NCBI GenBank assembly: GCA_046758865.1
Contig: JBHIBD010000001.1
Location: 7,443 to 71,442, forward strand
From: Candidatus Brocadiales bacterium
GTDB lineage: Bacteria; Planctomycetota; Brocadiia; Brocadiales; Bathyanammoxibiaceae
DNA: 64,000 nt
Reading direction: 5' to 3'
The translations under genes were made by a program, and so were the position numbers. The notes beneath the pieces were generated by a model that saw only the letters and a program-made list of their open reading frames with translations, searched no databases and had not been told where the DNA came from. This document shows, in pieces, positions 25,019-61,156 of this stretch; the first letter of the stretch is position 1; every line of letters starts with the position of its first letter.

Positions 25019-27364
25019 TTAATATAATTTAAAAATAAAAATTTTCTTTAAATAATCTACTCTAATCTCTGTACTGCCTGAACTCTCTTCAAGGGCTCTA
25101 GCAAGACTACCTTCCACTTTATTATCGAAGGATAAAAGATTGTATTTACTCCCATTACTTTTAAGAGGATCTAAGTACTCAGACAATTTCTCTGGAGTCA
25201 TGTAGTCAACAATGAAATACCTGAAACCATTATTTAGTGCGCTATCTAATTCTTCAAAGTTTTTCACTCCATGGACATTATCTTTTCCAAAATAAAACAT
25301 CCATACAGGAAGATAACTATCGACAGCTACCTTATCGGTCTTACCCTTCAGATAACAGTATGCCTTATCATAACCTGTAGTTGCAACAGCAGCTTGCCGA
25401 GAGTTTGGAAATCCTATAAGTATAACCAGCGCTAATAAAAGGCCGAAATTTATATACTTTAACTTCACCTTACCTTGTAAGAAAGATGCCAGGTCGCTGA
25501 AGGATTTTCCCAACAAAAGGCTAACAAACACAAGGAGTATCGTCCAGACCCGCGGCACAACCATTCCTCCAGAACCGGCTTGTATTGACCACAGGATAAC
25601 GGGAAAGAGAATAGAGACGAGTACAATAAACGTTGCCAGTTGATAGCCCCGTCTTAACAGAATAAGAAAATATATGATGCCACCACAAAAAGCACTCAGC
25701 ATAATAAGGCCTTCAAAGGAAAGGAATATCTTAAACAAGTATAGAAAATCACCCGGAGGACGACCTGCATCTAGAAGCTTATTATTAGTGAATATGCTGT
25801 AAAGGCCTTTTAAGAAATCAACACTATATACAGTGGGCATGCTCACGGCCAGCTCCCTTATTTTGACCTTAATTTCTGTAGAAAAAGGAGAGAAGTTTGC
25901 AATGAGGTTAGAGAAGAGCTCGGTCAGGTAGGTTTTCTGTGGATTTTCGAAGAGTTGGCTATAGACAACTACGGCTTCGACAAAAACTATTGGAATACAA
26001 AGTCCTAAAGAGAAAACTGCGAAACGCCCTGTCACACCCGAGAAACTGCGCTTTAGTGTCCTCATAGAGTATACTTCATAAAACAGGATCAATAAGAGCT
26101 GTATGGCCATAATATAGTGAAAAGTGAACCCAAATCCTGAGGCTACACCCGCTAAGAAGAGCAGGTGCCAGCTCTTTACATTATTCAGACTCAGATAATA
26201 AAAGTAGATACTGAGCGTAAGAAAGAACATCATTTCAACATAGCCAGTGCCTGCCTTAGAGTAAAAGATGTGTAAGAATGAGGAACCAAGGATGGCCGAG
26301 GAATAAAGCGCCGTCTGAATGTCAAACAGTCTCCTCGCCAGTACAAACATCATGAGTACTGTTAAGACCCCAAACACACAATCAATATATGAAGCCAAGG
26401 AACTTTTTATCCCAAATAGCTTGTAACCCAAGAAGATAATAAAAGTGTATCCCGTCTTGGCCCCCGTGTGAAAAAACTGCCCGTCTGTTTGCAGGTCCCT
26501 TGCAGCACATGAATATGTAGCACTGTCATTGATAAGAAAGGTCTGTTCACTGACCCCATAAGCTCTAAAGAAGAGGCTGGTCGACAAGATAAATAGCAAT
26601 ATTATATGCTCTAAAGAGACACCTGAGGAAATAGGCATTAAGTTATAGTTTCTCCGACCTGTGCGTCCCTCTGAATGGATACAGAAATTCCTGCCGACCC
26701 GTAGTTCCCTCAATAAATACTTTAGAAAAAGTAGTCCAGCTGGGATAGATTTGGCTGTACTCTCCCCGCCGATTCTGTCGCCTTCTATTGTAGGGGTCTC
26801 CGCCACTTTCAACCCTAGCTTCATCGCTCTAATAGACACCTGGTACTCGATAACAAAGCCCGGAGCATCTGGGGCCATTCTCTGGAAAGCTGCTTTAGTA
26901 ATGGCCCGGTAACCGTTTATCGTATCAGTTATTTGGCCTCCCCATATGGAATTTGCAATGAAGGTGAAGGCCCTATTGGCCCAAGCCCGCCAGGGTAATA
27001 GAGCCTCATCTTCCTCATTCCTAGCATTAGCGAGAAAACGGGAGGCGATGGCCATATCAAAGCCCTCTTTCAAAAGCCCAGCAAGTCTGGGAATGTCTTT
27101 GGGGTCTTCGTTTCCATCAGGACTGAAAAACACCAAATGTTCACCCCTGGCCTCTCTCATAGCTATTCGAAAGGCCTCCCCCCTGCCCTTAACATCCTGA
27201 ATTATTACCTTCATACCTTTGCTACGAAAGAATTCCACCGTCCCGTCTACGGAGCCCCCATCAATTACGATGGTCTGGTCCACACTATCAAATGGAATTT
27301 GGTCGAACAGGGCCGTAATGCCCTCAATCTCATTAAGGGTTAAGATAACGAGTGTAGTGCTCAT
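25019..27364 (-). CDS. fusion protein: N-terminal GT2 (polyprenol-phosphate sugar synthase-like) plus C-terminal polytopic GT-C/PMT_2-like domain
   Basis: N-terminus LVILTLNEIEGI, VIDGGSVDGT, FFSPDGNEDP (GT2). From about residue 250 there are more than 10 hydrophobic helices and a soluble tail, as in ArnT/PMT-type transferases. Confidence 0.75.
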   Translation of the reverse strand: MSTTLVILTLNEIEGITALFDQIPFDSVDQTIVIDGGSVDGTVEFFRSKGMKVIIQDVKGRGEAFRIAMREARGEHLVFFSPDGNEDPKDIPRLAGLLKEGFDMAIASRFLANARNEEDEALLPWRAWANRAFTFIANSIWGGQITDTINGYRAITKAAFQRMAPDAPGFVIEYQVSIRAMKLGLKVAETPTIEGDRIGGESTAKSIPAGLLFLKYLLRELRVGRNFCIHSEGRTGRRNYNLMPISSGVSLEHIILLFILSTSLFFRAYGVSEQTFLINDSATYSCAARDLQTDGQFFHTGAKTGYTFIIFLGYKLFGIKSSLASYIDCVFGVLTVLMMFVLARRLFDIQTALYSSAILGSSFLHIFYSKAGTGYVEMMFFLTLSIYFYYLSLNNVKSWHLLFLAGVASGFGFTFHYIMAIQLLLILFYEVYSMRTLKRSFSGVTGRFAVFSLGLCIPIVFVEAVVVYSQLFENPQKTYLTELFSNLIANFSPFSTEIKVKIRELAVSMPTVYSVDFLKGLYSIFTNNKLLDAGRPPGDFLYLFKIFLSFEGLIMLSAFCGGIIYFLILLRRGYQLATFIVLVSILFPVILWSIQAGSGGMVVPRVWTILLVFVSLLLGKSFSDLASFLQGKVKLKYINFGLLLALVILIGFPNSRQAAVATTGYDKAYCYLKGKTDKVAVDSYLPVWMFYFGKDNVHGVKNFEELDSALNNGFRYFIVDYMTPEKLSEYLDPLKSNGSKYNLLSFDNKVEGSLARALEESSGSTEIRVDYLKKIFIFKLY

Positions 27365-28348: not shown

Positions 28349-29800
28349 CTATCTATCCAGTATCTTCTTATGCAAAGAGCCAAGCATGAAAAGTGACGTC
28401 TTTGCAATCCACAAGAATTCTGTAAGCGATTGCACAGAGAACAAAAGTTCAAGCATCTTGGAGGATCGGTAGTAAAAGTCTTGATAGGCCTTTTGGTAGT
28501 ATTTCGCTACATCTTCCTTGCTCAGGCTTCCCAACTCGTAGAACGCTTCACCGCTATAGAACCCCATATCTAGACCGGATGTAGTGTCAACCAAGAATCT
28601 GCCCTCTCTTTGGACCATTTCGAACAATCTAGTACCTGGAAATGGTACCGTAATCGTGAAATTTGCGATGGTGGGATTCATCTTTATGGCAAAATCTATC
28701 GTCTTTTGCATGGTCTGGGCATTATCCCCAGGAAGACCAAACATGAAAAACCCGTATACGATCATACCGCTGTCCTTCGCCAACCTGGTTGCTTCCAATA
28801 CCTTACTGAGGCTAATGCCTTTTCTACAATTCTTTAAAACCCTCTCATCGCCGGATTCGACACCAAACGCTATCTTAAAGACACCTGCCTTTTTCATTTT
28901 CTTGATAATATTCTCATCAAGAGAATCCACGCGAACGCCTAGCTGGAGATTTATGGCTAGATTGTAGTTCCGCTCGATTATCCCATCCAATATCTCCACT
29001 GTCCTTTTACGGATAAGGGAAAAATTATCGTCCAGGATATCTATCTGCTTTACATTTAATTCCTTTACTAGATAATCGATCTCGCTTAGTACGTTTTGGG
29101 GTGACCTTGCGGTAAAGTTTGATAAGAACACATCCTTACTGCAGTACACACACTGGCTGGGACAACCCCTGCTGGTAAGGATTGGGGCAACAGGCGTCTT
29201 CCTGGCCCTGCTCTTGTACAAGTTGAGGTCGGGAAGCATGTACCAGGCCGGAATGGGAAGGGAGTCTAGGTCCTTTATTCTTTTCCGCTGTTCAGTCCTT
29301 ATGATAGTTCCGTTCTCGGCATATGCTACCCCATTGATACCGCTGAAGTTATTGCACTGCCCACGCCTCAAGTTGTGCATTATCTCCAGCATGGTAAGCT
29401 CCCCCTCGCCAATTACAACAACATCTGCCTTTCCCTCCTGCAGGAATTTCTGCGGAAAGGAGGTTGGGAAGGGGCCGCCAACGATAATCTTGGGTGCCTC
29501 ATGACAGGCAGACTTGAGTTTTTCTGCAATTTCGATACATGCATTGCCAGTAAATAAATTTGCGGTAATCCCAACGGCCTTTGGCTTCGACCTCAGAATG
29601 TCCTCTACGACCATGTTAGCGTCTTTTTTCAGGACATTCGCATCAATGACACCACACCGAAACCCTTCATTCTCTAATACAGCGGCTATATAAGCTAGGC
29701 CTATGGGTGGCAATAAGGTTGTTTCACTAACCCCTTTTATATTTCCAGGGAATGGTGCGACCAAGATTATGTCCGGTTCATCCTGCAACATATAATTCAT
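28349..29800 (-). CDS. B12-binding-domain radical SAM enzyme (start moved to the internal ATG)
   Basis: TSRGCPSQCVYCSKD (CX3CX2C) after a B12-binding-like N-domain (IILVAPFPG...IGLAYIAAVLE). The ATG at 29800..29798 lies 5 nt after the zinc-ribbon ORF stop, with GGAAGTGAG upstream. Confidence 0.85.
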   Translation of the reverse strand: MNYMLQDEPDIILVAPFPGNIKGVSETTLLPPIGLAYIAAVLENEGFRCGVIDANVLKKDANMVVEDILRSKPKAVGITANLFTGNACIEIAEKLKSACHEAPKIIVGGPFPTSFPQKFLQEGKADVVVIGEGELTMLEIMHNLRRGQCNNFSGINGVAYAENGTIIRTEQRKRIKDLDSLPIPAWYMLPDLNLYKSRARKTPVAPILTSRGCPSQCVYCSKDVFLSNFTARSPQNVLSEIDYLVKELNVKQIDILDDNFSLIRKRTVEILDGIIERNYNLAINLQLGVRVDSLDENIIKKMKKAGVFKIAFGVESGDERVLKNCRKGISLSKVLEATRLAKDSGMIVYGFFMFGLPGDNAQTMQKTIDFAIKMNPTIANFTITVPFPGTRLFEMVQREGRFLVDTTSGLDMGFYSGEAFYELGSLSKEDVAKYYQKAYQDFYYRSSKMLELLFSVQSLTEFLWIAKTSLFMLGSLHKKILDR

Positions 29801-29804
29801 AAGC

Positions 29805-29990
29805 TCACTTCCAGAATTCCCAGACGTAACGCTCCTTCTTTTTGCCAAAGTCACAGTCTGAATTTGAGCACTTATACATCTCCCAACCGCTTGCGCTGGA
29901 AATAATAAGCTTACTTCCGCACTTGGGACACCTTTTAATCAGTCCCAGCCACCAGGCTAATTTTTTTACGTATGGCAGACTTTCTTTCAT
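29805..29990 (-). CDS. 61-aa zinc-ribbon mini-protein
   Basis: CPKCGS...YKCSNSDC gives two Cys pairs. ATGA start/stop overlap with the upstream dehydrase gene. The ORF ends 5 nt before the radical SAM start. Confidence 0.55.
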   Translation of the reverse strand: MKESLPYVKKLAWWLGLIKRCPKCGSKLIISSASGWEMYKCSNSDCDFGKKKERYVWEFWK

Positions 29991-35526: not shown

Positions 35527-35978
35527 GTTAAATACGAACCGTCCTGACCAGTGATTCCCGCAATTAGAGCCTTCTTCAATTCAAAGATCTTCCTAGCACT
35601 GTTAGGGCCCAGGGCTTGGGCCAATTAGCCCCCTGCTTAAGGGAATCTGCCAAGAACCGTCTTACAAAATGACGCTTGAAGATAGAAGAACCAAAAAGAG
35701 ATTCCTCTATAAACCTCTTAGTTCCCCTTTTAGCCACAGGTCAAAAGGGAGTGTAAGGGTCATCTGAAAGATTACGCAAAGAAGTATCTTTAAAGGCATC
35801 TTCTAACTGATAACAACGCTTTTTAGAGAAACCCATTGAGGATACTACTAGATAGTGTTCCTGCCCAAGGGAAGTAATCATCTTATAAATCGTCTTGGGT
35901 GGAGGTATGGAGCTGCAAAGTAGGTAAAGTACTACGGCCTGAAGGTCTTGGTTCCTAAGGCTAGTGAAACACAAATTC

Positions 35979-36542
35979 TTACCCTCTAAGCCTCCAGCTC
36001 TGAAACATCTTCCTGAAGTCGCCAAGGTAGCCCTTAAAATCTTGCTGTTGTGTAACCCCTGTAAAGGAGTAGGCCTTATCTTTGACTACCGTAAGGAGCT
36101 GGATGAACTGGAGGGTATAATCTCCATCCGTGTAGGCATATATCAGCTCCTGCCATTCCGCACCGGCCTGGCTGACCCATCTTTCCAGGAAGAATTTTGT
36201 ATCTGGATACCTTGACCTTATCTGATTTTTTAGCTCCTCTGTGAGGTCTCCCAGGTCCTTTTCTGTATCAGAGACAAGGGCTATAAGGGTGGCCTGGAAC
36301 CCGGAAGGAGGGGTATTTGTGAAGACTACAAGGTCTTCTGCCTCCTGGGGGCTGATTTCCCAGCCCCCGAGGAGGGTAAATCTGAAATACTTACCCCTGT
36401 ACTCCTTTTCCTGTTTTTCTCCCTGTTGGGTCCCAGACAGATTAAATTTGAAGTACTCACTTCTGTATTTCTCTTGGTATTCCTGTGAAAAGGCCTGGAC
36501 AGGAACAAGGAATAAAACAAAGAGGAAGATGAGTTTCTTCAT
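35979..36542 (-). CDS. secreted hypothetical protein (187 aa)
   Basis: Signal peptide MKKLIFLFVLFLVPVQAFS. Internal echo KYRSEYFKFNLSG / EYRGKYFRFTLLGGW. Lies downstream of the 163-aa CarboxypepD_reg-like gene. Confidence 0.6.
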   Translation of the reverse strand: MKKLIFLFVLFLVPVQAFSQEYQEKYRSEYFKFNLSGTQQGEKQEKEYRGKYFRFTLLGGWEISPQEAEDLVVFTNTPPSGFQATLIALVSDTEKDLGDLTEELKNQIRSRYPDTKFFLERWVSQAGAEWQELIYAYTDGDYTLQFIQLLTVVKDKAYSFTGVTQQQDFKGYLGDFRKMFQSWRLRG

Positions 36543-36581
36543 AGCTGTTTTTAAAAGCCGATAGGGATATAGTTTTATGGG

Positions 36582-37073
36582 TTATGGAGATGCGACCCTA
36601 TCCTTGCCGCCGCCTCCGATGGCCCCGGTAGCAGCCGCAGCCCCTAACCCTACACCAGCAGCCGCAAGCACCCCAACTACTACATACACCCATTGACCAG
36701 GATGAGGTGACAAGAAGCCCTTGGTCTTACTCAGCTTTAGGCTCGTCTGCTTGCCTGTGGGGCTTAGCTGTACGTACTCACTGGCCTTATCCAAGCCATG
36801 AGCGGCCTGAATTCTGTAGGTCTTTCCAGCCTCAAGGCCCTTGAACTGGAAGCTCCCGTCTGGCCTAGTAGTTGTAGAGGCCGCCACTACATCAGTAGCT
36901 ACATCCACTGCCTCCACCTTTATTCCCCGCAGGGGCTTACCATCAATGCCCACCACAGTCCCGGTAATCTCTCCAGTGGTCTGGGCAAACAGGCTACTCG
37001 TTTGCCCTGCTACAGGAAACACAGCTGCTAACAGGACCAGACACCACACCAATACCTTTTTTGGTTTGAACAT
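36582..37073 (-). CDS. CarboxypepD_reg-like protein with signal peptide and Gly/Ala-rich C-terminal TM segment (paralog A, 163 aa)
   Basis: GEITGTVVGIDGKPLRGIKVEAVD...RPDGSFQFKGLEAGKTYRIQA fits the carboxypeptidase-regulatory-like fold pattern. C-terminus VYVVVGVLAAAGVGLGAAAATGAIGGGG. SD GGAG upstream. Confidence 0.75.
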   Translation of the reverse strand: MFKPKKVLVWCLVLLAAVFPVAGQTSSLFAQTTGEITGTVVGIDGKPLRGIKVEAVDVATDVVAASTTTRPDGSFQFKGLEAGKTYRIQAAHGLDKASEYVQLSPTGKQTSLKLSKTKGFLSPHPGQWVYVVVGVLAAAGVGLGAAAATGAIGGGGKDRVASP

Positions 37074-37128
37074 TTTGTGATTTCTCCTTTAGTTTGGATT
37101 TCCATTTTTTATGTGTTTATAGCGCCAA

Positions 37129-37193
37129 AGTTTACAGAAAAGAGAAAGAATGTCAAGAAAAAACTTGACATTACTACAAAAAAGGTTTATTTT
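37129..37193. promoter_or_regulatory. back-to-back divergent promoters sharing the palindrome TGTCAAG-A6-CTTGACA (37151..37170)
   Basis: Plus strand: TTGACA 37165..37170, 17 nt, TATTTT 37188..37193, reading toward wza-like 37327. Minus strand: TTGACA (complement of 37151..37156), 16 nt, TAAACT (complement of 37129..37134), reading toward 37073. Confidence 0.5.
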
Positions 37194-37237
37194 CGGGAAG
37201 ATATTGTAGTTCTATTTTTGTGCTCTTATAACACCAA

Positions 37238-37302
37238 AGTTTACATGAAGAAGAAATATTGTCAAGAAAAAACTTGATTCTACCAGAGAGAAGGTTTATT
37301 TT
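37238..37302. promoter_or_regulatory. second, slightly degenerate copy of the divergent promoter cassette
   Basis: TGTCAAG-A6-CTTGATT at 37260..37279. Plus strand: TTGATT, 17 nt, TATTTT (37297..37302). Minus strand: TTGACA, 16 nt, TAAACT (37238..37243). Confidence 0.4.
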
Positions 37303-37326
37303 TGAGAAGATGTTAGGTAGCTCAAG

Positions 37327-38424
37327 ATGTTTCTAAGAAACGGTGTTCTTACAACTCTCATAATAGTTATCTTGGCCTCAGGCTGCGTAGAGGAGTCAAA
37401 GAAGCTGTCTCCCCCCAAGGCCCTGAATAACCCCTCTAAAAATCTTTCTACCCATCCACAATGGAGATATCTGTCTTCTCAATACATGGACAGTAATTAC
37501 ACTATCGGCCCGGAGGATCTCCTAAACATAACAGTCTTCGGGGCGGAGGAGTTTAACCGGGAGGTGAGGGTAAACCATAAGGGCAGCTTTACCTTCCCCC
37601 TAATAGGTTCCGTCTATGCCGAAGGCCGCACTGTGGAACAACTGGAGCAGGCCCTAGCCAGCATGCTCTCTGAGAAATACCTCAAGGACCCCCAGGTGAG
37701 CGTCTTTGTGGAGCAGTACAAGAGTAAGAAGGTGGCCATAGTAGGCCATGTGGTAAATCCACAGATAGTAAAGCTAACAAGGAACAGGAGCACCCTCTTT
37801 GAAGTACTGGGCATGGTGGGGGGACTAGGGGAAAAGGCGGGTAAGGTAATATATGTCATCAGGCCCGCAGAGGTGGTCATGTCCACCTTGAGGGAGGCCA
37901 GGGCTGGTCAGGACCTCGGTCAAGCGTTTCTTAACGGAGGACAGGATGAAGAAATAATAGCCAGAATCAGAGATGAGGTTATACCAATAAACGTAGTTGA
38001 GCTTATGGAATATAGAAATCCCATGAGCAATATGGAGATAATGCCTGGCGATATAATAAGCGTGCCCCAAGGGGAATATTTCTTTATCCTGGGGGAGGTG
38101 AATAAGCCTGGGGCCTACGCCACGAGGGAGGGGCTCACTGCCTTGCAGGCAATCTCCTTCGGGGGCAAATTCTCCCCCATTGCCAAGTACAAAGATGTGA
38201 GGCTCCTGCGGAGACAACCTGCCGGAGAGGTTCAAATAGCCTCTCTTAATATAAAGAAGATAGCAAAAGGGGAGGAGGAGGACATCCTTATTGAGCCTGG
38301 GGACGTCCTGCTGGTAGGCAAAAGCACCCTTAAGACAGTTGCATTGCAGGCCGCACAGGTAGCAAACGTGGCCCTGAACGCCTTCACCAACGCCTATGCC
38401 TGGGATTTTATAACAAAGGATTAA
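37327..38424 (+). CDS. outer-membrane polysaccharide export protein (Wza/OPX family: Poly_export + SLBB)
   Basis: Lipoprotein-like signal (ILASGC). YTIGPEDLLNITVFG and PLIGSVYAEGRTVEQLEQALASML...DPQVSVFV fit Poly_export. GDIISVP and GDVLLV are SLBB-like. Confidence 0.85.
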   Translation: MFLRNGVLTTLIIVILASGCVEESKKLSPPKALNNPSKNLSTHPQWRYLSSQYMDSNYTIGPEDLLNITVFGAEEFNREVRVNHKGSFTFPLIGSVYAEGRTVEQLEQALASMLSEKYLKDPQVSVFVEQYKSKKVAIVGHVVNPQIVKLTRNRSTLFEVLGMVGGLGEKAGKVIYVIRPAEVVMSTLREARAGQDLGQAFLNGGQDEEIIARIRDEVIPINVVELMEYRNPMSNMEIMPGDIISVPQGEYFFILGEVNKPGAYATREGLTALQAISFGGKFSPIAKYKDVRLLRRQPAGEVQIASLNIKKIAKGEEEDILIEPGDVLLVGKSTLKTVALQAAQVANVALNAFTNAYAWDFITKD

Positions 38425-38699
38425 GGGTGGAGTGGAGATTGGCTGTATGAAGTTGAGAGTGATCTACAATATGTCTGAAATGATCATAGAAAGTGAACAA
38501 CAGAAGGTTATCGTCACATACACCGATGAACCGATGAAAGGAGGAAAGAAAGGCTCGCCAGAACTGTAACCGTTAAGATATGAATACAGTGGGTATTGTT
38601 GGACCACAGCCAAGATTTGATGCCTGATTGCCGGAGGCAAGCCTTATCATCTAAACTAGAGTCCCCAATATATCCTTACTAAGCAGTGACTCTTTTCTT

Positions 38700-40187
38700 A
38701 TGGAATCCCAAGAGAAGTCCAAAGAAGGTTATTACCCAATAGCTCCACCCCCTCCTGCGGAAGAGGAGGAGATGCACCTGCTCGACTACTTGCGGGTGGT
38801 CCTTAGGAGGCTATGGATACTGGTCACCTTCTTCTGCGTCACGGTGGTTACCGCTACCATTTACACCTTCCTCCAGACCCCCATCTACCAGGCAGTCTGC
38901 ACCATCAGCATCTTTAGGGAGGAGCCGAAGATACTCACCAAGAAAATTGAAAAGATACTGCCCTTCAGGGCCTGGGGCCAGGAGGATTTAATAAGGACCG
39001 AGTGCGCGGTAATCAAGAGCCGGGCTGTAGCCACTAGAGTCATCAAGAGACTAAACCTCGACCTCCATCCGGAATTCGCTGAAGGGACCCCAAGCATACC
39101 CGGTAGAGAAATCAACCCCCCTAAGGAGGGTTCCTCTCCATACCATCCCCTGGCAATGGCCATCCTGGGTAGATTAGAGGTAGACCCTACCCGCCTGAGC
39201 CAAATTGTTAAGATAAAATTCCAGAGCAAGTACCCCCGGCTTTCGGCCCAGGTTGCTAACGCCTTTGCTGAGGAGTACATCCAGCAAGACCTGGAAAAGC
39301 AGGCGTTCCTCTCCGGAGATGTCTCCGTAGACCTCTCTCTGCAGCTAGTGGAATACAAAGACAAGCTGGAGAAATCTGAAAAAAAGCTCTACGCCTACGC
39401 CAAGGAGCATAATGTCGTGGACCTGGGGGAAAAGGAGAACCTTTTCACGAGGAAGATAATCGCGATGGACAACCAGCTTAGCAAGGCAGTGGCCGACCGC
39501 ATAAAGGCAGAGAGCCGCTACCTCCAGTCCCAGCGGGGCAATCCAGGCTTTCTGCCTGAGGCCCTCGAATCATCGGTCATAAGCAATCTTGAGCTCCGGT
39601 ATGCCGAGGCCAACTCAGAGTATCTGCGGGAACTTGAGAGGGTGAAGCCCCAACACCCCGAGGCCATCCAGCTCAAGGCCAAGCTGGAGACCATAAACAA
39701 GGCCCTGAGGAACGAGACGCAGAAGATTTCGGCCAGCATAAGGGACGAATATCAGGAGGCGGTGGAGAGGGAGAAAAATTTCAGGGAACAACTGAATGAC
39801 CTCTTCACCCAGAAGCAGGCCCTGGAAGGTAAGCTGGTGGAGTACAGGATGCTCAAAAGGGATGTCGACACCAACGCCCAGCTTTATAACCACTTACTCA
39901 AGAGGATGAAGGAGACTGCACTTTCTTCTGAGGTAACTTCTGGGACAAGGACTGCCAACATTCAGATTTTAGAGAAGGCAGAGGTACCCAAGACACCCTA
40001 CAGGCCCAGGAAGAAGCTGAATATCCTTCTCAGCGTGATAGTGGGCCTGACCATGGGCACCGGATTATGTTTCTTTATTGAGTATCTGGACAAGAGCGTC
40101 AAAACCCAGGAAGATATTGAGAGGCGCATAGGCCTGGTCTGCCTGGGCGCTATACCCAACATCAAACATGCCCCCAGTAAGAGATAA
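38700..40187 (+). CDS. polysaccharide co-polymerase / chain-length determinant (Wzz-GumC type, kinase on a separate polypeptide)
   Basis: N-terminal TM after LLDYLRVVLRRLW, a long coiled-coil periplasmic region, and a C-terminal PRKKLNILLSVIVGLTMGTGLCFFIEYLD segment. Confidence 0.85.
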   Translation: MESQEKSKEGYYPIAPPPPAEEEEMHLLDYLRVVLRRLWILVTFFCVTVVTATIYTFLQTPIYQAVCTISIFREEPKILTKKIEKILPFRAWGQEDLIRTECAVIKSRAVATRVIKRLNLDLHPEFAEGTPSIPGREINPPKEGSSPYHPLAMAILGRLEVDPTRLSQIVKIKFQSKYPRLSAQVANAFAEEYIQQDLEKQAFLSGDVSVDLSLQLVEYKDKLEKSEKKLYAYAKEHNVVDLGEKENLFTRKIIAMDNQLSKAVADRIKAESRYLQSQRGNPGFLPEALESSVISNLELRYAEANSEYLRELERVKPQHPEAIQLKAKLETINKALRNETQKISASIRDEYQEAVEREKNFREQLNDLFTQKQALEGKLVEYRMLKRDVDTNAQLYNHLLKRMKETALSSEVTSGTRTANIQILEKAEVPKTPYRPRKKLNILLSVIVGLTMGTGLCFFIEYLDKSVKTQEDIERRIGLVCLGAIPNIKHAPSKR

Positions 40188-40947
40188 TACTAATCCCTAC
40201 TTAATTGCCCAGCAAATGCCTAATTCGTTGGTGGCAGAATCCTTCCGTTCTATCCGCACCCATCTCCTTTTTTCTTCCCCAGACGTCCAGCTCCGTACCC
40301 TCATTATAACCGCCGCCCGCGCCGAAGAGGGGAAGACCTTCACCACCCTAAACCTGGGGACAGCGATCGCCCAGGCGGGAAAGAGTGTGCTCCTGGTAGA
40401 GGCAGATATGCGACGACCTAGTTTCTCAAAGCTCTTTTCCCTGGGGACGCCCGGGAAGACCTTTGGGCTCTCAAGCCTTGTAATGAAGAGGTGCCGGCCA
40501 GAGGAGGTGATAATAAAAATGCCTAAGAACGACCATATGGCCGTACTACCCTGCGGACCCAAGCCACCTAACCCCTCGGAGCTCCTAAGCTCAAAGAGCA
40601 TGGATGCAGTGATAGCTGAACTGAGGGAGAGGTTTGATATAGTATTGATGGATTGCCCTCCTGTGCTCGGCCTGGCCGATGCAAGGGTTCTCTCTACTAA
40701 GGTAGATGGTTGTTTGGTAGTTATTAGACACCACAAGACCTCCCTGAAGGACGTTACCAAGACAAAGGAGTCCATCCAGGCGATAGGGGGACGCATAGTG
40801 GGGGCCATATTAAACCGCGTAAAACCAGAGCCCTTTGGCTACTATTACGGCGGCTACCCCTACTATAGCTACCATCATGATGAGGCAAAGGAAGGAAAGA
40901 AAAAGGGGGTTAAGAAACGGTTCTGGCGGAAAAAGACGAAGTCATGA
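40168..40947 (+). CDS. BY-kinase (CpsD/CapB-type tyrosine autokinase) with C-terminal Tyr cluster
   Basis: Walker A ARAEEGKTFTTLNL, Walker A' LLVEADMRRP, Walker B IVLMDCPP, and a tail FGYYYGGYPYYSYHH. Confidence 0.85.
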   Translation: MPPVRDNTNPYLIAQQMPNSLVAESFRSIRTHLLFSSPDVQLRTLIITAARAEEGKTFTTLNLGTAIAQAGKSVLLVEADMRRPSFSKLFSLGTPGKTFGLSSLVMKRCRPEEVIIKMPKNDHMAVLPCGPKPPNPSELLSSKSMDAVIAELRERFDIVLMDCPPVLGLADARVLSTKVDGCLVVIRHHKTSLKDVTKTKESIQAIGGRIVGAILNRVKPEPFGYYYGGYPYYSYHHDEAKEGKKKGVKKRFWRKKTKS

Positions 40948-41300
40948 GGAAATCTACCATTAAATTTACCTATGAAGACTACCTGCACCCGCCGGCAGAT
41001 GGGAGGTATGAGCTCATAGAGGGGGAGCTTTTTACGGTACCTGCACCGGAGACTTACCATCAGAAGGTCCTAGGGGATTTAGAATTTATCCTCTGGAGTT
41101 ATGTGAGAGAAAAGGGTCCAGGTGGGATTTATGTTGCCCCAACTGACGTAGCCCTCTCTGAGGAGGACGTAGTACAGCCACATATCCTTTTTATCTGCAA
41201 GGGCAGGTAAAGAACATCAAGGGTGTTCCCAATCTGGCGGTGGAGAGAGTCTCGATCCCTTGTAGACTGCAAAGAAGGGAAAAACGTCTCCCCAGGCCTG
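40944..41300 (+). pseudogene. Uma2-family (DUF820) endonuclease pseudogene
   Basis: YELIEGELFTVPAPETYHQ...VAPTDVALSEEDVVQPHILFI matches the Uma2 N-terminal half. The 88-aa ORF stops early. The next conserved block (KGVPNLAVERVS, compare gaPDLvvEvlS) continues in another frame, and the C-terminus is degenerate. Confidence 0.6.
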
Positions 41301-41367
41301 AATCTCCTTAGTTCCCTATGGTGGAATTAAAACAGAGCCTGGCCAATCTTTCCGGGCAGCATAACTC

Positions 41368-42819
41368 ATGAAACAAAAGTTTACGGATTTATGTGAGTAC
41401 ATCATAACAGGGGGTGTCATTTTCCTTGTAATCTTTGCGCCCATATTTTATGGGGGTTTCCAGGTATGGGCCTACTCAGTGATTGAATTCGTTATTATAT
41501 TTCTCCTTCTAATATGGGTGGGCAAGCTGGTGGCGGGCTTGCTTAGTAAATCGCGCAGGGCAAGGTCTGAAGGTACGTCTTTAAATCCCTTGGGCCTGGT
41601 AAAGAATCCATTAAACCTCCCGATATGTATCTTTATAGGATTTATGCTCTTTCAAATGACGCCCCTTCCAGAAAGGATGCTAAAGAATATATCCCCTAAA
41701 ACATACGAACTCTACAGGGATTCCTTAATAGAAGGCCCTGCGGCCTATGATAATGGGGCCTCTGAGGCTCCCAGCCGACCTGCTATATGGAGGCCCCTCA
41801 GCCTTTACTCTCATGCTACGAGGACAGAGACCCTAAAGATTTTAAGCTGTATGGGTTTGTTCCTCCTTATTGTGAATAATTTTAGAAAGGTATGGCAGAT
41901 AAATCTCTTGGTGATCGCAATCGTTGCCCTGGGCTTCCTGGAGGCGGTCTTTGGGCTGGTTCAATATCTTGCAGGGGAGTCCCTGTGGATTTTCAGAAAC
42001 TCGGGAAGGGCCAATGGCACGTACATAAACCCCAACCACTTCTGTGGCTACCTGGAGATGGTTGTACCCCTGGGCCTGGGCCTCTGGGCCTATCAAACCT
42101 GGGGAGTCAGAGAAGCCCAGGGTACACCTCCACGGTGGAAAGACCCAAAGGGATTATTACTGGGTTATAGTATCATGGTCACCTCAGCCGCCCTCATAAT
42201 GTCGCAGTCCAGGACAGGTATTGGGGCCTTCCTGGCCGTTATTATAGGCTTCGCACTTTATGCCTCTCTTCGGGGTAGATTGAGGAAATGGAAGATCATC
42301 TCCATAGGGGCATGGTCGGGTCTTGCAACACTATTCTTTATATGGATAGGGCTCCAGCCCGTTATCCAACGTTTCCAGGGGAGTATATTTACAGATGAAC
42401 GCCCCTTGCTCTGGGCAGATACATGCAGGCTTTTCCTAGACTTTCCTGTTTTTGGGACGGGCCTGGCAACCTTTATAAACACCTTTCCCCAATATCAAAG
42501 TGTAGAGAAATACTATATTTACGATTATACGCACAATGATTATCTACAGCTCTTGGCGGAAGGTGGGACAATAGGGTTTTTAATAGTATTAACCGGGGCC
42601 GTGCTCTTCCTCCAAAAGACCCTCCGGGATTGGCTCCACAGCACTGGTCCTCTAGCCAGGTGGATAGGACTGGGGAGCCTGCTGGGCATACTTGCCCTCT
42701 TGTTACACAGTATTGCAGATTTTAATATGCATATCCCTTCAAATGCCATGTTATTCGCAACTTTACTGGCCATAGCATGGACAAGTGTACATCTCCCACA
42801 CGAAGGAGTTGCAGACTGA
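41368..42819 (+). CDS. O-antigen ligase/polymerase-family membrane protein (Wzy_C domain)
   Basis: SQSRTGIGAFLAV and YTHNDYLQLLAEGGTIGFLIVL are characteristic of Wzy_C. About 10-12 TM segments. Confidence 0.8.
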   Translation: MKQKFTDLCEYIITGGVIFLVIFAPIFYGGFQVWAYSVIEFVIIFLLLIWVGKLVAGLLSKSRRARSEGTSLNPLGLVKNPLNLPICIFIGFMLFQMTPLPERMLKNISPKTYELYRDSLIEGPAAYDNGASEAPSRPAIWRPLSLYSHATRTETLKILSCMGLFLLIVNNFRKVWQINLLVIAIVALGFLEAVFGLVQYLAGESLWIFRNSGRANGTYINPNHFCGYLEMVVPLGLGLWAYQTWGVREAQGTPPRWKDPKGLLLGYSIMVTSAALIMSQSRTGIGAFLAVIIGFALYASLRGRLRKWKIISIGAWSGLATLFFIWIGLQPVIQRFQGSIFTDERPLLWADTCRLFLDFPVFGTGLATFINTFPQYQSVEKYYIYDYTHNDYLQLLAEGGTIGFLIVLTGAVLFLQKTLRDWLHSTGPLARWIGLGSLLGILALLLHSIADFNMHIPSNAMLFATLLAIAWTSVHLPHEGVAD

Positions 42820-42848
42820 AGCAACCTTAAGAGGACGAAGTTTATGAT

Positions 42849-43508
42849 ATGCCGAGGACATCTCTCATCTACAGAAGAAAACGCTTAGCCAGGTGGCTAC
42901 TACCCGTGTTCTTATTCATAGGGACAATTCTTATGGGCATATGGGTGACAAAGCAGTTCCTGGGTAATCTCAGTTATCAAGGGTTTAGCAATAACGAAGA
43001 GGGAGATAACCCTCTCCAGCTAGATTGGCTCTTACTGGCTATTAGAAGGGATTCTACCAACGCCCTTTACCATCGAAGGCTGGCCGCGCACTCCGCACGC
43101 ATCCTCACAGACCCTTACAAGCTCAGGGCTTATGCAGAAAGGATGGGCTACTTAAATTCCCCTTACAAGAGTTACCCATTGTGGGAATATTTAGAGACTC
43201 CCGAGCGTCAGGCCCTATGGTTATTGATAGAGGTAATTATACCCCACTATAAACGAGCCCTGGAGCTAAGTCCTCTTGATGCAGAGGCGTGCATTGAACT
43301 AGGCTGGGCATATCACTCTCTTGCCACCCTGATGGAGGTGCATCCAGGGGGATACAGATTGTCCAGACACTATATAGATATGTCTAAGGCCTGTTTCCAG
43401 AGGGCCCTGGAGCTTGCCCCAAAAGATACCGTGATAAAGAAGTATGTTGAGGAATGGCAGAAAGAAACAAAGGTGGATGTCTCTGAGGTGCACATTTCAA
43501 GAGATTGA
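42849..43508 (+). CDS. membrane-anchored TPR-like protein
   Basis: N-terminal TM (WLLPVFLFIGTILMGIWV). YKRALELSPLDAEACIELGWAY and FQRALELAPKD are TPR-like. Confidence 0.6.
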   Translation: MPRTSLIYRRKRLARWLLPVFLFIGTILMGIWVTKQFLGNLSYQGFSNNEEGDNPLQLDWLLLAIRRDSTNALYHRRLAAHSARILTDPYKLRAYAERMGYLNSPYKSYPLWEYLETPERQALWLLIEVIIPHYKRALELSPLDAEACIELGWAYHSLATLMEVHPGGYRLSRHYIDMSKACFQRALELAPKDTVIKKYVEEWQKETKVDVSEVHISRD

Positions 43509-47309: not shown

Positions 47310-47891
47310 ATGCAATTAGACCTTAAAAATTATCTTGACCAGCTTGAAAATACTTTATTAGAAATTCAGGTAACAAATTCTGATAATGCTAATATAGATT
47401 TGATTAATGGCATCGAGGAAGTTACAAAAATAATATCTGCTCAATCGGAGAAAGGCAACAAAGTTATAATGATTGGAAATGGCGGTAGCTCATCAATCGC
47501 AAGCCACATAACAGTCGATTTATGGAAAAACGGAGGAGTGAGGGCGATTACTTTTGGTGACCCAGCATTACTTACCTGTGTGAGTAATGACTTGGGTTAT
47601 GAGTGTGTCTTTGAAAAACCTATAAGGATGTTTGGTGATGCAGGGGATGTTCTTATTGCCATAAGCAGTTCTGGAAGATCAGAGAATATTCTAAATGGGG
47701 TTAGTGCAGCGGAGAAAAGATTGTGTAAAGTTATTACGATGTCTGGATTTGAACCAGATAATCCACTTCGCTCAGCTGGAGAGATAAACTTTTATGTCCC
47801 GTCCAATTCCTATGGATATGTGGAGATAGCCCATTTAGTTCTTTGTCATTATGTTGTGGATATAATAATAAACAAGAATTCACATGGATAG
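47310..47891 (+). CDS. gmhA: SIS-domain sedoheptulose-7-phosphate isomerase (GmhA-like)
   Basis: MIGNGGSSSIASHITVDL and LIAISSSGRSENIL. 193 aa. Confidence 0.8.
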   Translation: MQLDLKNYLDQLENTLLEIQVTNSDNANIDLINGIEEVTKIISAQSEKGNKVIMIGNGGSSSIASHITVDLWKNGGVRAITFGDPALLTCVSNDLGYECVFEKPIRMFGDAGDVLIAISSSGRSENILNGVSAAEKRLCKVITMSGFEPDNPLRSAGEINFYVPSNSYGYVEIAHLVLCHYVVDIIINKNSHG

Positions 47892-58282: not shown

Positions 58283-58311
58283 TTGACAAGTTTAGAGAAA
58301 TAACGTACATT
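58283..58311 (+). promoter_or_regulatory. candidate sigma70-like promoter for paralog B
   Basis: TTGACA 58283..58288, 17-nt spacer, TACATT 58306..58311. About 50 nt upstream of the GTG at 58364, which has a GAGG SD. Confidence 0.4.
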
Positions 58312-58363: not shown

Positions 58364-58855
58364 GTGCTGATAAAGTCAAGGCTTGTGACCTTCCTTCCTG
58401 TGTTCCTCTCTTTGGTGTTTCCCATTGCAGGCCATATGGGGGCAGTGCTGGCCCAGACACTAGGGGACATTTCTGGAACCGTGGTTGGTGTTGACGGCAG
58501 GCCTCTAATGGGGGTGGAAGCGAGACTTGTGGACATTAATACGGGAAACGCGGTAGCCTCCATAAAAACTGCCAAAGATGGTTCGTTTAGTTTTAGTGGG
58601 CTAAAGGCAGGAAATACATACAAGGTACAGGCCTTGCACGGTAAGGATGTGGATAGTGCCCTAGTAACCGTTTCATCTGGCCCCTCAAAACCTGTTGCCT
58701 TGAAGCTTAGCCAGACCAAAGGTTTCATGGCCTTGGCCGGTGCTGGTGGGGGCTTTCCCGTTTGGGGCTATGTCCTAATAGGTTTGGCCGTAGCTGGAGC
58801 AGCAGCAGGTGCCGCCGCCGCTTCTGGTCTGGTGGCGGGGGGGGCCTTGGGCTAG
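58364..58855 (+). CDS. CarboxypepD_reg-like protein with signal peptide and Gly/Ala-rich C-terminal TM segment (paralog B, 163 aa)
   Basis: GDISGTVVGVDGRPLMGVEARLVD...AKDGSFSFSGLKAGNTYKVQA. C-terminus VWGYVLIGLAVAGAAAGAAAASGLVAGGALG. Collinear with 36582..37073. Confidence 0.75.
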   Translation: MLIKSRLVTFLPVFLSLVFPIAGHMGAVLAQTLGDISGTVVGVDGRPLMGVEARLVDINTGNAVASIKTAKDGSFSFSGLKAGNTYKVQALHGKDVDSALVTVSSGPSKPVALKLSQTKGFMALAGAGGGFPVWGYVLIGLAVAGAAAGAAAASGLVAGGALG

Positions 58856-59113
58856 CTTATCCTTTGAGCCCATAGCATTCTCCTACGACAGTTCTGGATG
58901 GTCAGGCTTTGACGAGATTTATTTTGTCCGTTTTATCAGTAACATTATCCCTTTTGCAGAGTGAGACTGCCAATTCAGGTGCCTTTAAGGCTGAAACTTT
59001 CACTACAAAACTGTCGGGGAATTGGGACAGTAGTCCTCAGGAAAACAGATTTTCAGCATCTGGCAATTTAGATGAGTAATTCTTTCCTATCTACTTCCAA
59101 TGGAGGGTTTTTT

Positions 59114-61156
59114 ATGCAAGTCCGATTACTCCTTGGTTTAGTTTTACTTGTAGCTTTTTACTGTTTTAGCCTAGTTGGATGTCAGTCTACTGCCCTACAG
59201 CGAAAAGATACCCACTACGCAAAGCTTAGTTCATTACCGACTGACGTAAAATTCCCAGAAAATCTCAAAAGCAAGATACGCTACGACACGGATAATGAGC
59301 GCCTGGTTCTTAAGGGGGTTATGACTGAAGATGAAAGAGACAAATTGCTGAAGTTGTCCAAAAACGTTCCGTATACGGCAGCTATCGGAACACTTTACCA
59401 TAAACAGCAGAATAATACAAAAAGAAAACAACGGCCCTCCAGTGAAACTGATACTTCTAAAAGCATGACAGCACTAAAGGATACAACGAAGGAAGCTACA
59501 AAGGATATCCAAGAGAAGGAAATTTTGAAAGAACTTGCTGAAGAATCGCCAAAAGGACATAAAAAACCTCGTGCGAGTGCTACAGGCCTGGAAGAGCAAA
59601 AAGACATTGATCCGGTGGAAAAATGGGTTTCAGAGCCTCCAACCATCGAGGAGGGAAGCAAGGATTTCATAGAGGTTGCCGCCGCGCAAATAGTGCGTAA
59701 GTTTGAAGAGAGCTTTCCACCAACAAAGGGAAAGGACTTCACCGTCCTAGTGAAATCATTTACGACTCTTGACGGAAATCTGACTATGCTTTCGAGCCTT
59801 CTGGCAGAGGAACTTTTTACGCAACTCTCAAATAGCCCATGGGTGGGCGGTAGCCTGCGAATCTGTTGTAATCCCATAGATGGTGGCCTAGCACCTAATC
59901 GACTAGACGGGATAATAACGGGAAGCTTGGCAAAAATAGGAAAGGAAATAAAGATTAATGCTAGACTTGTCTCAGCAGATACTCACATATTAATATCCTC
60001 AATCTCAACAAGAATACCCGCGTCCGAAACCGCTGTGAGCCTTTTAGGGGCCGAAATAACCCCCAAAAGGCCCATAGAAAGTGAAGACCTGAATACGAGG
60101 CTGGACTCTCTGGCCTGGCAGGTGGAACAGATCTTGTACGACCTCCAGGGAGATAAGGAAGTTCCGCAAAGGCTATGTGTCCTGGATTTCCGCACGCTGG
60201 GAGGCAAGAAGAATTTCCTGGGGAAATTCTTGGCTGAAGAATGTAAACTAAGGCTTTCTAAGAATAAATTATGGAAGTTTGTTCCCACCGCTAGAGTTGA
60301 AAAACTTCTTGGCAGAGAGATCTCATCCATCTCAGATTTGACCATTACGGACCTTACAGAAGGACTGGCTGGAGGGTTGGGTATAGAGGCCATTATCGAA
60401 GGAACGGTCACAGACCTAGGCAACGGCGTTAAGGTGAACGTAAAGGTAGGTGATATAATGGAGGGTTTGACCTGGGGTACTGCTTCTGTGGATATACTAA
60501 GGGATAGAAGCGTCGAATTCCTTTTAAATAAAGACAATGGGCGAGTTCTAACCTCTGGCAGTTCCGTTAATGCGGGTGTGGTCAAGGAGGGTTTGAAGAC
60601 CGCTTACTCTGGGCAGAAAAGTGAGGTTTCTGTAGTAAACAGACTTGGAGAGGACTTTTTCCTGAGGGAAGATTTTTCCGACCCCGAGGTAGTACACCGC
60701 CTGCTCGAATGGGGTAATGATTTAATCATTACCAGTGAGGGAGAGAAGCGTTTCTTGGCATCACAAGAACCCAGATTCGTAAATGTGGGGAAGAAAATAG
60801 ATTTTCCAACAAACTTCACCCTGGGGTTTGAAGTGAAAGGAAGCAGCAAATATTGGAATACGTTGAAGTTTGCCGATGTTTCTGGTAATGAGTTTGGCTT
60901 AGATTTCCAACTCAACGAAGGCAACTGTTACATAGTGCTCCCCGGACCAAAGAGTGTAAGAGTAAGAGTAGACACCAACTCGGCTAATAAATTCAAGCTG
61001 GTCAGAAAGAATGGCTTTTATGAGGTATACGTAAATGATACCCTGGCATTAGCAGGGCCTTATTCCAAGTATACCCAGTTCAAGAGCTTCACTATAACAG
61101 CTCGATTAGACCAGATTCGTTTTACAGGTTTCCTGGGGAAGGTAATTAAGGGATAA
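59114..61156 (+). CDS. large lipoprotein (680 aa from the internal ATG), function unknown
   Basis: GGAGG lies 7 nt before the ATG at 59114. Lipobox LVGC. Lys/Glu-rich linker. Two copies of a hydrophobic-x-x-F..L.G...L...LAEE...LS motif. The beta-rich C-terminal domain looks like a lectin/LamG-type jelly roll. Confidence 0.7.
   Translation: MQVRLLLGLVLLVAFYCFSLVGCQSTALQRKDTHYAKLSSLPTDVKFPENLKSKIRYDTDNERLVLKGVMTEDERDKLLKLSKNVPYTAAIGTLYHKQQNNTKRKQRPSSETDTSKSMTALKDTTKEATKDIQEKEILKELAEESPKGHKKPRASATGLEEQKDIDPVEKWVSEPPTIEEGSKDFIEVAAAQIVRKFEESFPPTKGKDFTVLVKSFTTLDGNLTMLSSLLAEELFTQLSNSPWVGGSLRICCNPIDGGLAPNRLDGIITGSLAKIGKEIKINARLVSADTHILISSISTRIPASETAVSLLGAEITPKRPIESEDLNTRLDSLAWQVEQILYDLQGDKEVPQRLCVLDFRTLGGKKNFLGKFLAEECKLRLSKNKLWKFVPTARVEKLLGREISSISDLTITDLTEGLAGGLGIEAIIEGTVTDLGNGVKVNVKVGDIMEGLTWGTASVDILRDRSVEFLLNKDNGRVLTSGSSVNAGVVKEGLKTAYSGQKSEVSVVNRLGEDFFLREDFSDPEVVHRLLEWGNDLIITSEGEKRFLASQEPRFVNVGKKIDFPTNFTLGFEVKGSSKYWNTLKFADVSGNEFGLDFQLNEGNCYIVLPGPKSVRVRVDTNSANKFKLVRKNGFYEVYVNDTLALAGPYSKYTQFKSFTITARLDQIRFTGFLGKVIKG

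Follow-up and report, generated by a model that had tools for sequence, protein, structure and literature searches.

A small CarboxypepD_reg-like protein very probably heads a conserved envelope module beside the wza genes of Brocadiales, with two reciprocally reduced copies at the ends of one glycan block

Two genes encoding 163-residue proteins with a predicted CarboxypepD_reg domain, copy A and copy B, lie at either end of a glycan gene block in a 64,000-nucleotide stretch of a Candidatus Brocadiales bacterium (assembly GCA_046758865.1, contig JBHIBD010000001.1, positions 7,443 to 71,442 of the forward strand), hereafter the window. Comparison with homologous loci indicates that this gene is very probably the first of a conserved and previously undescribed three-protein envelope module, which is tied to the genes for Wza, Wzz, a tyrosine kinase and a Wzy_C-domain protein. 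On gene content, the bracketing of the block is securely attributed to two diverged modules that would have merged and then undergone reciprocal gene loss, and not to a conserved architecture.

Results

A conserved operon lies head-to-head with wza, wzz and the kinase gene

The operon is found, on the plus strand, in five independent lineages with longer contigs (L001/L012-15, L002, L007, L008 and L011), in the order CarboxypepD_reg protein (170–208 aa), unannotated periplasmic protein of predicted PsbP fold (160–188 aa), lipoprotein with a FlgO-domain match (663–683 aa) and, where the contig reaches, Wzy_C protein (717–739 aa). In L011 the fourth gene leaves the contig and has no Pfam record. 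The first two genes are spaced by 13–39 nt. At every locus that includes the upstream flank, the operon and the wza, wzz and tyrosine-kinase genes are transcribed divergently; the loci with enough flank for this count are L001/L012-14, L002, L008, L011 and the window. An earlier reading of the window, made from the letters alone (the sequence-only reading), had linked the protein to Wza/Wzz loci and had placed copy A divergent from wza. The link holds at every homologous locus with enough flank, which argues against a family scattered without linkage to glycan loci, and the orientation of copy A is confirmed.

Each of the seven other lineages carries a single copy per locus. The proposal that the pair frames the segment from 37.3 to 58.2 kb is therefore correct as to flanking position but not as a conserved design. 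Similarly, the genes described as following each copy are present, but they are not independent partners, because both come from one operon. A literature search on anammox organisms and on PsbP-like proteins in Wza systems returned nothing specific on the family or the module.

The family is small. Word-indexed searches of 5.8 billion proteins gave three close relatives of copy A (A type, 72–100% identical), among them the identical protein P0001, named from a Candidatus Brocadiales metagenome-assembled genome (MAG), and eight of copy B (B type, 57–100%). Look-ups of neighbouring genes added two members, one of 181 aa in L008 and one of 208 aa in L011 (identical to P0103). The organism names attached to family members are Brocadiales or Brocadiaceae MAGs only, and public proteins identical to those of the window are assigned to a 94-kb contig of a Candidatus Brocadiales MAG. 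In a profile search of 1.84 billion representatives, most of the leading matches were giant CarboxypepD_reg proteins with many repeats, and P0011, P0001 and P0103 were the only small full-length clusters among the best 150; because the giant proteins swamp it, this search says little about distant small relatives. A pattern scan of GTDB species genomes yielded no new member and only the already known Brocadiaceae contig, and the same kind of scan of JGI metagenomes yielded no new member and six weak matches (28–38% identity over ~70–90 residues). Two long JGI loci were inspected and rejected, as they encode unrelated multi-domain or TonB-receptor-type proteins.

The two copies share a predicted prealbumin-like sandwich

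Both open reading frames (ORFs) span 163 aa where the sequence-only reading placed them. Residues 1–122 of copy A align with residues 1–123 of copy B at 46% identity over 123 aa (65% positives, one gap, E 9e-37; BLASTP), close to the ~40–45% over ~120 residues estimated earlier, and the last 40 residues are similar in composition and do not align. Copy A comprises a putative signal peptide, a CarboxypepD_reg beta-sandwich, the motif LKLSKTKG, a Gly/Ala-rich hydrophobic segment and the tail KDRVASP. A signal-peptide-like N-terminus and the three sequence motifs quoted by the sequence-only reading were found in both copies, and its suggestion of a CarboxypepD_reg-like domain was borne out by a hidden Markov model check, in which the scores of 43.2 bits for copy A and 36.0 bits for copy B exceeded the gathering score of 32.3 bits of the Pfam family (PF13620). 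NCBI annotates both as carboxypeptidase-like regulatory domain proteins. In the two copies the Kyte-Doolittle 19-residue mean is 1.9–2.1 for the N-terminal stretch and 1.8–2.1 for the C-terminal Gly/Ala-rich stretch. By alignment and profile match, copies A and B are true paralogues with a CarboxypepD_reg-like domain.

The AlphaFold2 model of copy A, calculated from an 11-sequence alignment, contains a beta-sandwich at residues 33–121 with block-mean predicted local distance difference test (pLDDT) values of 80–92. The model fits a prealbumin-like beta-sandwich of seven to eight strands; Foldseek matched it to prealbumin-like domains in the PDB with E-values of 1e-5 to 2e-4 at 12–27% sequence identity, including domain II of carboxypeptidase D (E 5.3e-5). 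The anammox S-layer glycoprotein of the Kustd1514 type (NF052345) was rejected as a relative: copy A reaches 15.6 bits over one domain against a cut-off of 1400, and copy B gives no match.

The best NCBIfam match of both copies, which extends from the signal peptide to the middle of the domain, is ECF_sub_HI1622 (NF058648), the NikL family. Members of that family are likewise small proteins in which a hydrophobic N-terminal segment precedes a prealbumin-like domain. The copies could accordingly be read as a NikL-like subunit of a nickel/cobalt energy-coupling factor (ECF) transporter for metal uptake. The scores of 23.1 and 21.6 bits fall far below the cut-off of 100, and neither the window nor the related loci contain ECF or Nik transporter genes, so that this assignment is effectively refuted.

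The C-terminal hydrophobic segment is conserved

In the family alignment, A and B types both begin with a basic N-terminus, behind which a hydrophobic stretch runs up to A-Q-T/A. After the sandwich, both types have an invariant L-x-L-x-x-T-K-G, a short variable linker and an invariant Trp (W128), behind which lie ~24 Gly/Ala/Val-rich residues with G140 conserved and G144, A147 and A148 invariant. The protein ends in a short tail, in most members with basic residues and an Ala/Ser/Pro ending. The Kyte-Doolittle 19-residue mean of the hydrophobic segment is 1.4–2.1 across all seven lineages, which is compatible with a single membrane-spanning helix, borderline in two lineages. The Gly/Ala-rich tail noted earlier thus corresponds to a hydrophobic segment that is conserved in both copies and both types. 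The possibility, also raised then, that it is an irrelevant low-complexity stretch is not supported, because the Trp and the Gly/Ala positions are kept across both types. In the L011 member (L011 4554-5180, 208 aa), ~40 Asn/Gly/Glu-rich residues are inserted between the LKLS-x-TKG strand and the hydrophobic segment, which indicates that linker length is not constrained.

The same segment could be a cleavable sorting signal of the PEP-CTERM kind, through which an exosortase-type enzyme would attach the sandwich to the surface or to the polysaccharide. Most members do show the three-part layout of such signals (P-x-x-W or FPxW, ~24 hydrophobic residues, K/R/H near the C-terminus), the window Wza, Wzz and kinase resemble models of the XrtA system at scores below their cut-offs, and one tail gives a faint PEPxxWA-CTERM match. 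However, that match (15.8 bits against a cut-off of 35) is the only one among five tails searched against NCBIfam sorting models at E up to 10, and neither the scanned window ORFs (140 aa or longer) nor the gene lists for the related loci include an exosortase, rhombosortase or sortase. Such signals are normally carried by many proteins per genome, whereas one or two proteins carry the segment here, and the cluster behind the helix is acidic in L001 and missing in window copy B. We therefore regard a sorting signal as very unlikely.

The partner is PsbP-like and the lipoprotein carries a FlgO-domain match

The 187-aa partner of copy A is homologous to gene 2 of L001, L002 and L007, with 31–39% identity to other loci and the common motif FLLER-x-V-x-Q-x-G-x-E-W. 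A profile built from four members retrieved 15 relatives, for which Brocadiales are the only names. The partner itself has no Pfam match at E up to 1; among the 15 relatives, weak matches to the PsbP family (PF01789 / PF18933) were obtained, to PsbP in 8 (best E 6.3e-6) and to PsbP_2 in 7, and one relative has a precomputed PF01789 match. The AlphaFold2 model of the partner (pLDDT 75.7) fits an alpha/beta sandwich of the PsbP type. Its best Foldseek match is the cyanobacterial PsbP 2xb3 (CyanoP; E 2.6e-8, TM-score 0.61/0.72), and the other matches include DcrB, LpqN and the EagT6/SciW chaperones, which bind transmembrane helices. At residues ~25–55 of the partner (window 36380-36470), the first strand region is duplicated in tandem over ~22 residues (SEYFKFNLSG... 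/ GKYFRFTLLGG). This insert has low pLDDT; it is also present in the L023 homologue and absent from the 164-aa L022 homologue.

The lipoprotein of the window matches Pfam FlgO (PF17680) at 34.4 bits against a cut-off of 22.6, over model positions 88-128 of 130. All six orthologues examined (6/6) give a FlgO match (best E 5.6e-12), and identity to the orthologues is 51–65%. A search of PDB sequences with the lipoprotein family profile returned nothing useful.

Locus A and locus B are reciprocally reduced

At locus A, copy A and the PsbP-like partner remain and a lipoprotein gene is absent; at locus B, copy B and the lipoprotein gene remain and two of the four module genes have been lost. This reciprocal loss leaves one copy at each end of the block. 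Both lost genes of locus B can be traced as remnants. Between copy B and the lipoprotein gene, a 56-codon ORF consists of the first ~45 and the last ~10 codons of a PsbP-like gene, joined over an internal deletion of ~319 nt with a frameshift (DNA alignment to L007). Over its first 45 residues, this ORF shares 56% identity with the N-terminus of the PsbP-like protein of L007 (tblastn E 2e-9, residues 1-45), and its last 30 nt correspond, in another frame, to the 3' end of the gene for that protein (80% identity to residues 152-161; tblastn). Directly after the lipoprotein gene, a second remnant matches the L007 Wzy_C protein with 41% identity over 44 aa (E 6.5e-5; tblastn).

In L022 (GCA_044343095.1) and L023, the closest relatives of the A pair, an A-type copy and its PsbP-like partner directly precede the lipoprotein gene. 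L023 is 89.7% identical at the nucleotide level to window 37037-35985, and its next 360 nt are 78.9% identical to window 59046-59406. In the window, homology to L022 and L023 ends no more than 6 nt from the stop codon of the partner, where 452 unrelated nt without a convincing ORF (35527-35978) separate it from a GT4 gene; this end of homology marks a rearrangement breakpoint. In L022, positions 1-760, 5' of the A-type copy, match the wza-wzz intergenic region and the start of wzz in the window (82.8% identity), and the 1.1-kb wza gene is missing between the matched parts. A simple inversion between the inverted copies would fit the gene order and is a conceivable origin of the arrangement.

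Protein comparisons divide the window genes into two sets (Table 1). Copy A, its partner, Wza, Wzz, the kinase and the Wzy_C protein are outliers relative to the other loci and are contiguous (35979-43508), and copy B, the lipoprotein and a FAD oxidoreductase fall within the group. Synonymous divergence between the window and L023 is 0.14–0.36 for the A pair and 0.89 for the 5' part of the lipoprotein gene, which shows that adjacent L023 genes differ in history relative to the window. For the A pair, the ratio of nonsynonymous to synonymous divergence (dN/dS) is 0.30–0.54, indicative of purifying selection.

Table 1. Amino acid identity of window proteins to those of the other loci, and of the other loci to one another.
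Protein	Window vs other loci	Other loci mutually
Copy A	38-45%	42-62%
PsbP-like partner (A)	31-39%	50-67%
Wza	43-50%	52-60%
Wzz	48-50%	64-70%
Kinase	54-56%	68-72%
Wzy_C	29-34%	54-68%
Copy B	51-71%	42-62%
Lipoprotein	50-64%	47-57%
FAD oxidoreductase	69-70%	65%

Copy B could be a relic, with locus A alone encoding a working protein and copy B retained for driving expression of the downstream lipoprotein gene. Apart from the two gene losses, this reading draws on its GTG start, its weak Shine-Dalgarno sequence and the loss of the tail that follows the hydrophobic segment in relatives. The 3' end holds a run of eight G (58837-58844); reading on in the +1 frame gives ...LGLAYPLSP, and the stop codon behind this LSP ending appears to be placed as in L007. 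With one extra G, copy B extends to ...GGGLGLAYPLSP, and the stop codon TAG lies in a CCCATAG motif shared with the end of the L007 gene. The run itself may represent a site of slippage, a frameshift that has become fixed or an error in sequencing. Against a relic, the ORF is intact over 163 codons and copy B keeps all 33 invariant family positions (in an alignment of which it is a member). Its dN/dS relative to L007 is 0.14, a value that mostly reflects older history because dS is saturated. On balance, a relic appears rather unlikely.

The operon has a probable sigma-70-like promoter at a conserved position

The sequence-only reading assigned each copy a strong promoter of its own. Support for this comes from position: a perfect TTGACA lies 75–93 nt 5' of the start codon in 6/6 loci with enough upstream sequence and is followed, after 16–18 nt, by a -10-like hexamer. 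The number of matches gives no such support. Each copy has a 10-of-12 match to the sigma-70 consensus upstream, but sigma-70-like matches were not above shuffled controls (3 against a mean of 2.2 in one copy's region, 5 against a mean of 4.0 in the other's). The conserved position thus supports a sigma-70-like promoter of the operon's own better than scans of single sequences do.

The region between copy A and wza contains two tandem repeats (Table 2), each with a minus-strand TTGACA-N16-TAAACT (37156-37129 and 37265-37238). The proximal -35 lies within the palindrome TGTCAAG-N6-CTTGACA, which also supplies a plus-strand TTGACA. This palindrome could be a bidirectional promoter or a regulator-binding site.

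The surrounding glycan locus

The locus holds the gene set of a Wzx/Wzy-dependent Wza-Wzc pathway, which also includes a Polysacc_synt_3 flippase and a Bac_transf initiating transferase (Table 2). The 483-aa Wzy_C protein is 34% identical to residues 8-472 of the L007 Wzy_C protein and 29–34% identical to the long ones. Together with the 219-aa protein encoded behind it, it resembles the 717–739-aa Wzy_C proteins that end the module elsewhere. The 219-aa protein was rejected as a split C-terminus of a long Wzy_C protein, since it has no direct similarity to the L007 C-terminus and its only matches are sub-threshold ones to TPR. At 20925-22463, a 512-aa membrane protein reaches 35.2 bits against a cut-off of 40 for an oligosaccharide repeat-unit polymerase model, and the flippase gene (22515-23948) adjoins it. 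With a candidate separate Wzy polymerase at 20925, the Wzy_C protein encoded at 41368 becomes a possible ligase.

Table 2. Features of the window.
Feature	Position	Strand	Remarks
187-aa PsbP/DcrB-fold periplasmic protein (predicted), module gene 2 (A type)	35979..36542	-	signal-peptide-like N-terminus
Copy A, 163-aa protein	36582..37073	-	ORF; ATG start
Two tandem ~100-nt repeats, copy A / wza intergenic	37106..37314		spacing 109 nt; 78% identical
Wza-type outer-membrane polysaccharide export protein	37327..38424	+	Poly_export/SLBB; EpsE/pepcterm_export NCBIfam matches below cut-offs
Wzz/GNVR chain-length determinant	38700-40187	+	
Separate tyrosine autokinase	40168-40947	+	160 bits vs 108 cut-off
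Wzy_C-domain protein, 483 aa	41368-42819	+	Pfam Wzy_C 75.7 bits; only intact Wzy_C gene in window
219-aa protein	42849-43508	+	sub-threshold TPR matches
Promoter-like site TTGACA-N17-TACATT	58283..58311	+	81 nt 5' of copy B start codon
Copy B, 163-aa paralogue (B type)	58364..58855	+	ORF; GTG start, weak Shine-Dalgarno sequence; 57-71% identical to B-type proteins of other loci
PsbP-like pseudogene remnant (B type)	58909..59079	+	56-codon ORF between copy B and lipoprotein gene
FlgO-domain lipoprotein, module gene 3	59114..61156	+	680 aa from ATG 59114, lipobox LVGC; 694 aa if started at 59072
Wzy_C 5' remnant, first ~44 codons	61265..61390	+	overlaps ManC-like gene start; directly after lipoprotein gene

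Two genes encode membrane glycosyltransferases of the PMT_2 (GT-C) type (25019-27364 and 56847-58244). One PMT_2 protein is fused to a GT2 domain with a sub-threshold AglJ-like match; the other is encoded directly 5' of copy B and gives faint matches to archaeal STT3 and Agl23 models. The locus is unusually rich in radical SAM genes (5199-6404, 17459-18862, 28349-29854, 47884-48951, 52022-53107 and 55299-56813); three of the enzymes have B12-binding domains, two others have SPASM matches, and several S-adenosylmethionine (SAM) methyltransferases are also encoded. This richness may relate to methylated sugars such as those reported in the S-layer glycan of Kuenenia (PMC5088730). An ORF of 196 aa (498-1088) that encodes a phage-integrase-family domain borders the ~58-kb glycan locus on the left, just before the gene of the initiating sugar transferase (4415-5050), and may mark an island boundary.

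Discussion

Proposed function

Bacteria of the anammox order form dense biofilms and granules by means of extracellular glycans and glycoproteins. To our knowledge, the machinery of their glycan envelope is almost unknown, and the organisms are not genetically manipulable. For this lineage, the module proteins are concrete candidates for accessory steps that polysaccharide export takes in the periplasm and at the outer membrane. The window represents a natural experiment: the complementary gene loss in its two modules implies that components of one version can cooperate with those of the other, and that at least one source of the PsbP-like function and one of the lipoprotein function must be kept. 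The case is of moderate value, as the domain occurs widely, the family is very small and the function is inferred.

As a tentative mechanism, somewhat short of probable, we propose that the CarboxypepD_reg protein is tethered to the membrane and acts as an adaptor in the periplasm, within a complex accessory to a polysaccharide pathway of the Wza/Wzz type. After cleavage of its signal peptide, the protein would be held in the cytoplasmic membrane by a type I (N-out) anchor, whose glycine-rich helix, with a GxxxG-type motif, might oligomerise it. The beta-sandwich would face the periplasm as the adaptor. With the PsbP-like protein and the lipoprotein, the protein would make up an accessory scaffold specific to this lineage, which would link the inner-membrane Wzy_C/Wzz machinery to the export step at Wza. 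The PsbP fold is used elsewhere in protein-protein adaptation, and Eag chaperones use it to hold hydrophobic helices. Taken as a whole, the account of module, reciprocal loss and adaptor mechanism is narrowly favoured.

Several points weigh against this account. The hydropathy of the segment falls below the classical threshold of 1.6 in two lineages (1.40 and 1.54), and the residues that follow it in L001 are acidic (DDDDDH), so that the type I topology is not certain; in the AlphaFold2 model, the tail of copy A forms no helix and has pLDDT < 50. Copy B may be decaying and not functional, given its start codon, weak ribosome-binding site and lost tail. The A cassette could be foreign or merely fast-evolving, both being possible; its GC content (0.49 against 0.44) and GC3 are not decisive for a foreign origin, because the GMD, DegT and FAD oxidoreductase genes are equally GC-rich. 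The narrow distribution is provisional, since pattern-based scans may have missed divergent members. Finally, we infer the function from gene order and folds alone.

An alternative, also raised by the sequence-only reading, is that the protein is a glycoprotein substrate, which would carry or anchor the glycan of the locus. The enzyme for which it would be the dedicated acceptor could be the Wzy_C protein, in the role of an O-oligosaccharyltransferase like PglL/TfpO, or the PMT_2 protein encoded 5' of copy B. Pilin genes adjoin the genes of TfpO/PilO transferases in Pseudomonas and Acinetobacter. The gene is co-transcribed with that of a Wzy_C-domain protein in L001, L002, L007, L008 and L012-15, the candidate polymerase and flippase elsewhere in the window would leave Wzy_C free as a ligase, and many members end in the Ala/Ser/Pro motifs ASP, ASPASP or SPSTP. 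The Kuenenia S-layer protein is heavily O-glycosylated, probably at G-T/S-X (PMC5088730), and the domain has GT/GS motifs. However, GT is not conserved, because the invariant G38 can be followed by T, N, V, S or I, and G-T/S-X is too short to be informative. If the segment spans the membrane, the Ala-Ser-Pro tail would be cytoplasmic and beyond the reach of a periplasmic transferase; moreover, this tail is missing in window copy B and different in L008 and L011. The Wzy_C proteins score 31–35 bits against a cut-off of 188 for the O-glycosylation ligase model. We consider a substrate role unlikely.

More remote still, at a probability we put close to the bottom of the scale, is a protein-primed or protein-anchored surface polysaccharide. 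Here the Gly/Ala-rich segment would not be a permanent inner-membrane anchor but would be shielded in the periplasm by the PsbP-fold partner, as transmembrane helices are by the structurally related Eag/SciW chaperones; the partner would pass the protein to the FlgO-domain lipoprotein, and Wzy_C would be a dedicated O-oligosaccharyltransferase that loads the glycan, for example onto the Ala-Ser-Pro terminus.

Comparison with known systems

The favoured adaptor model can be set beside several characterized proteins. The sandwich modelled for copy A resembles the prealbumin-like domains of carboxypeptidase D domain II (1qmu), the Sulfolobus S-layer anchor SlaB (8qox_B) and the small subunit of the Kuenenia hydrazine dehydrogenase complex (6hif_Y). 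SlaB also couples beta-sandwich domains with a C-terminal membrane anchor. In contrast to these three, the proteins described here consist of a single domain in 160–210 aa with their own signal peptide and a Gly/Ala-rich C-terminal segment, and none of the structure-matched proteins shares their fixed operon context. The partner appears, from its model, to share the fold of the PsbP / DcrB / Eag-chaperone (DUF1795) family, but its context is a polysaccharide-export operon, which differs from the photosystem context of PsbP and the type VI secretion context of Eag proteins.

In Vibrio flagella, FlgO belongs to the H-ring that is associated with the outer membrane (bioRxiv 10.1101/358820). Compared with FlgO, the 680-aa lipoprotein is far larger, with a charged linker and an unassigned C-terminal domain, and it is the C-terminal third of the FlgO model that is matched. 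PelC is a lipoprotein that forms a ring guiding Pel export (PMC12141448). The 680-aa lipoprotein, like PelC, is encoded with a polysaccharide exporter, a likeness by gene context only. The accessory envelope proteins GfcABCD / YjbEFGH of the E. coli group 4 capsule are likewise small secreted, periplasmic and lipoprotein components encoded beside genes of the wza/wzc type. GfcABCD and YjbEFGH are presumed to assist polymer assembly or retention at the surface, and the proposed scaffold would be comparable in function to such companions of Wza/Wzc. None of the three module proteins matched a Gfc or Yjb family in Pfam at E up to 1. The module thus shows no homology to these systems and resembles them in the kinds of components set beside wza, with predicted folds of its own that are prealbumin-like, PsbP-like and FlgO-like.

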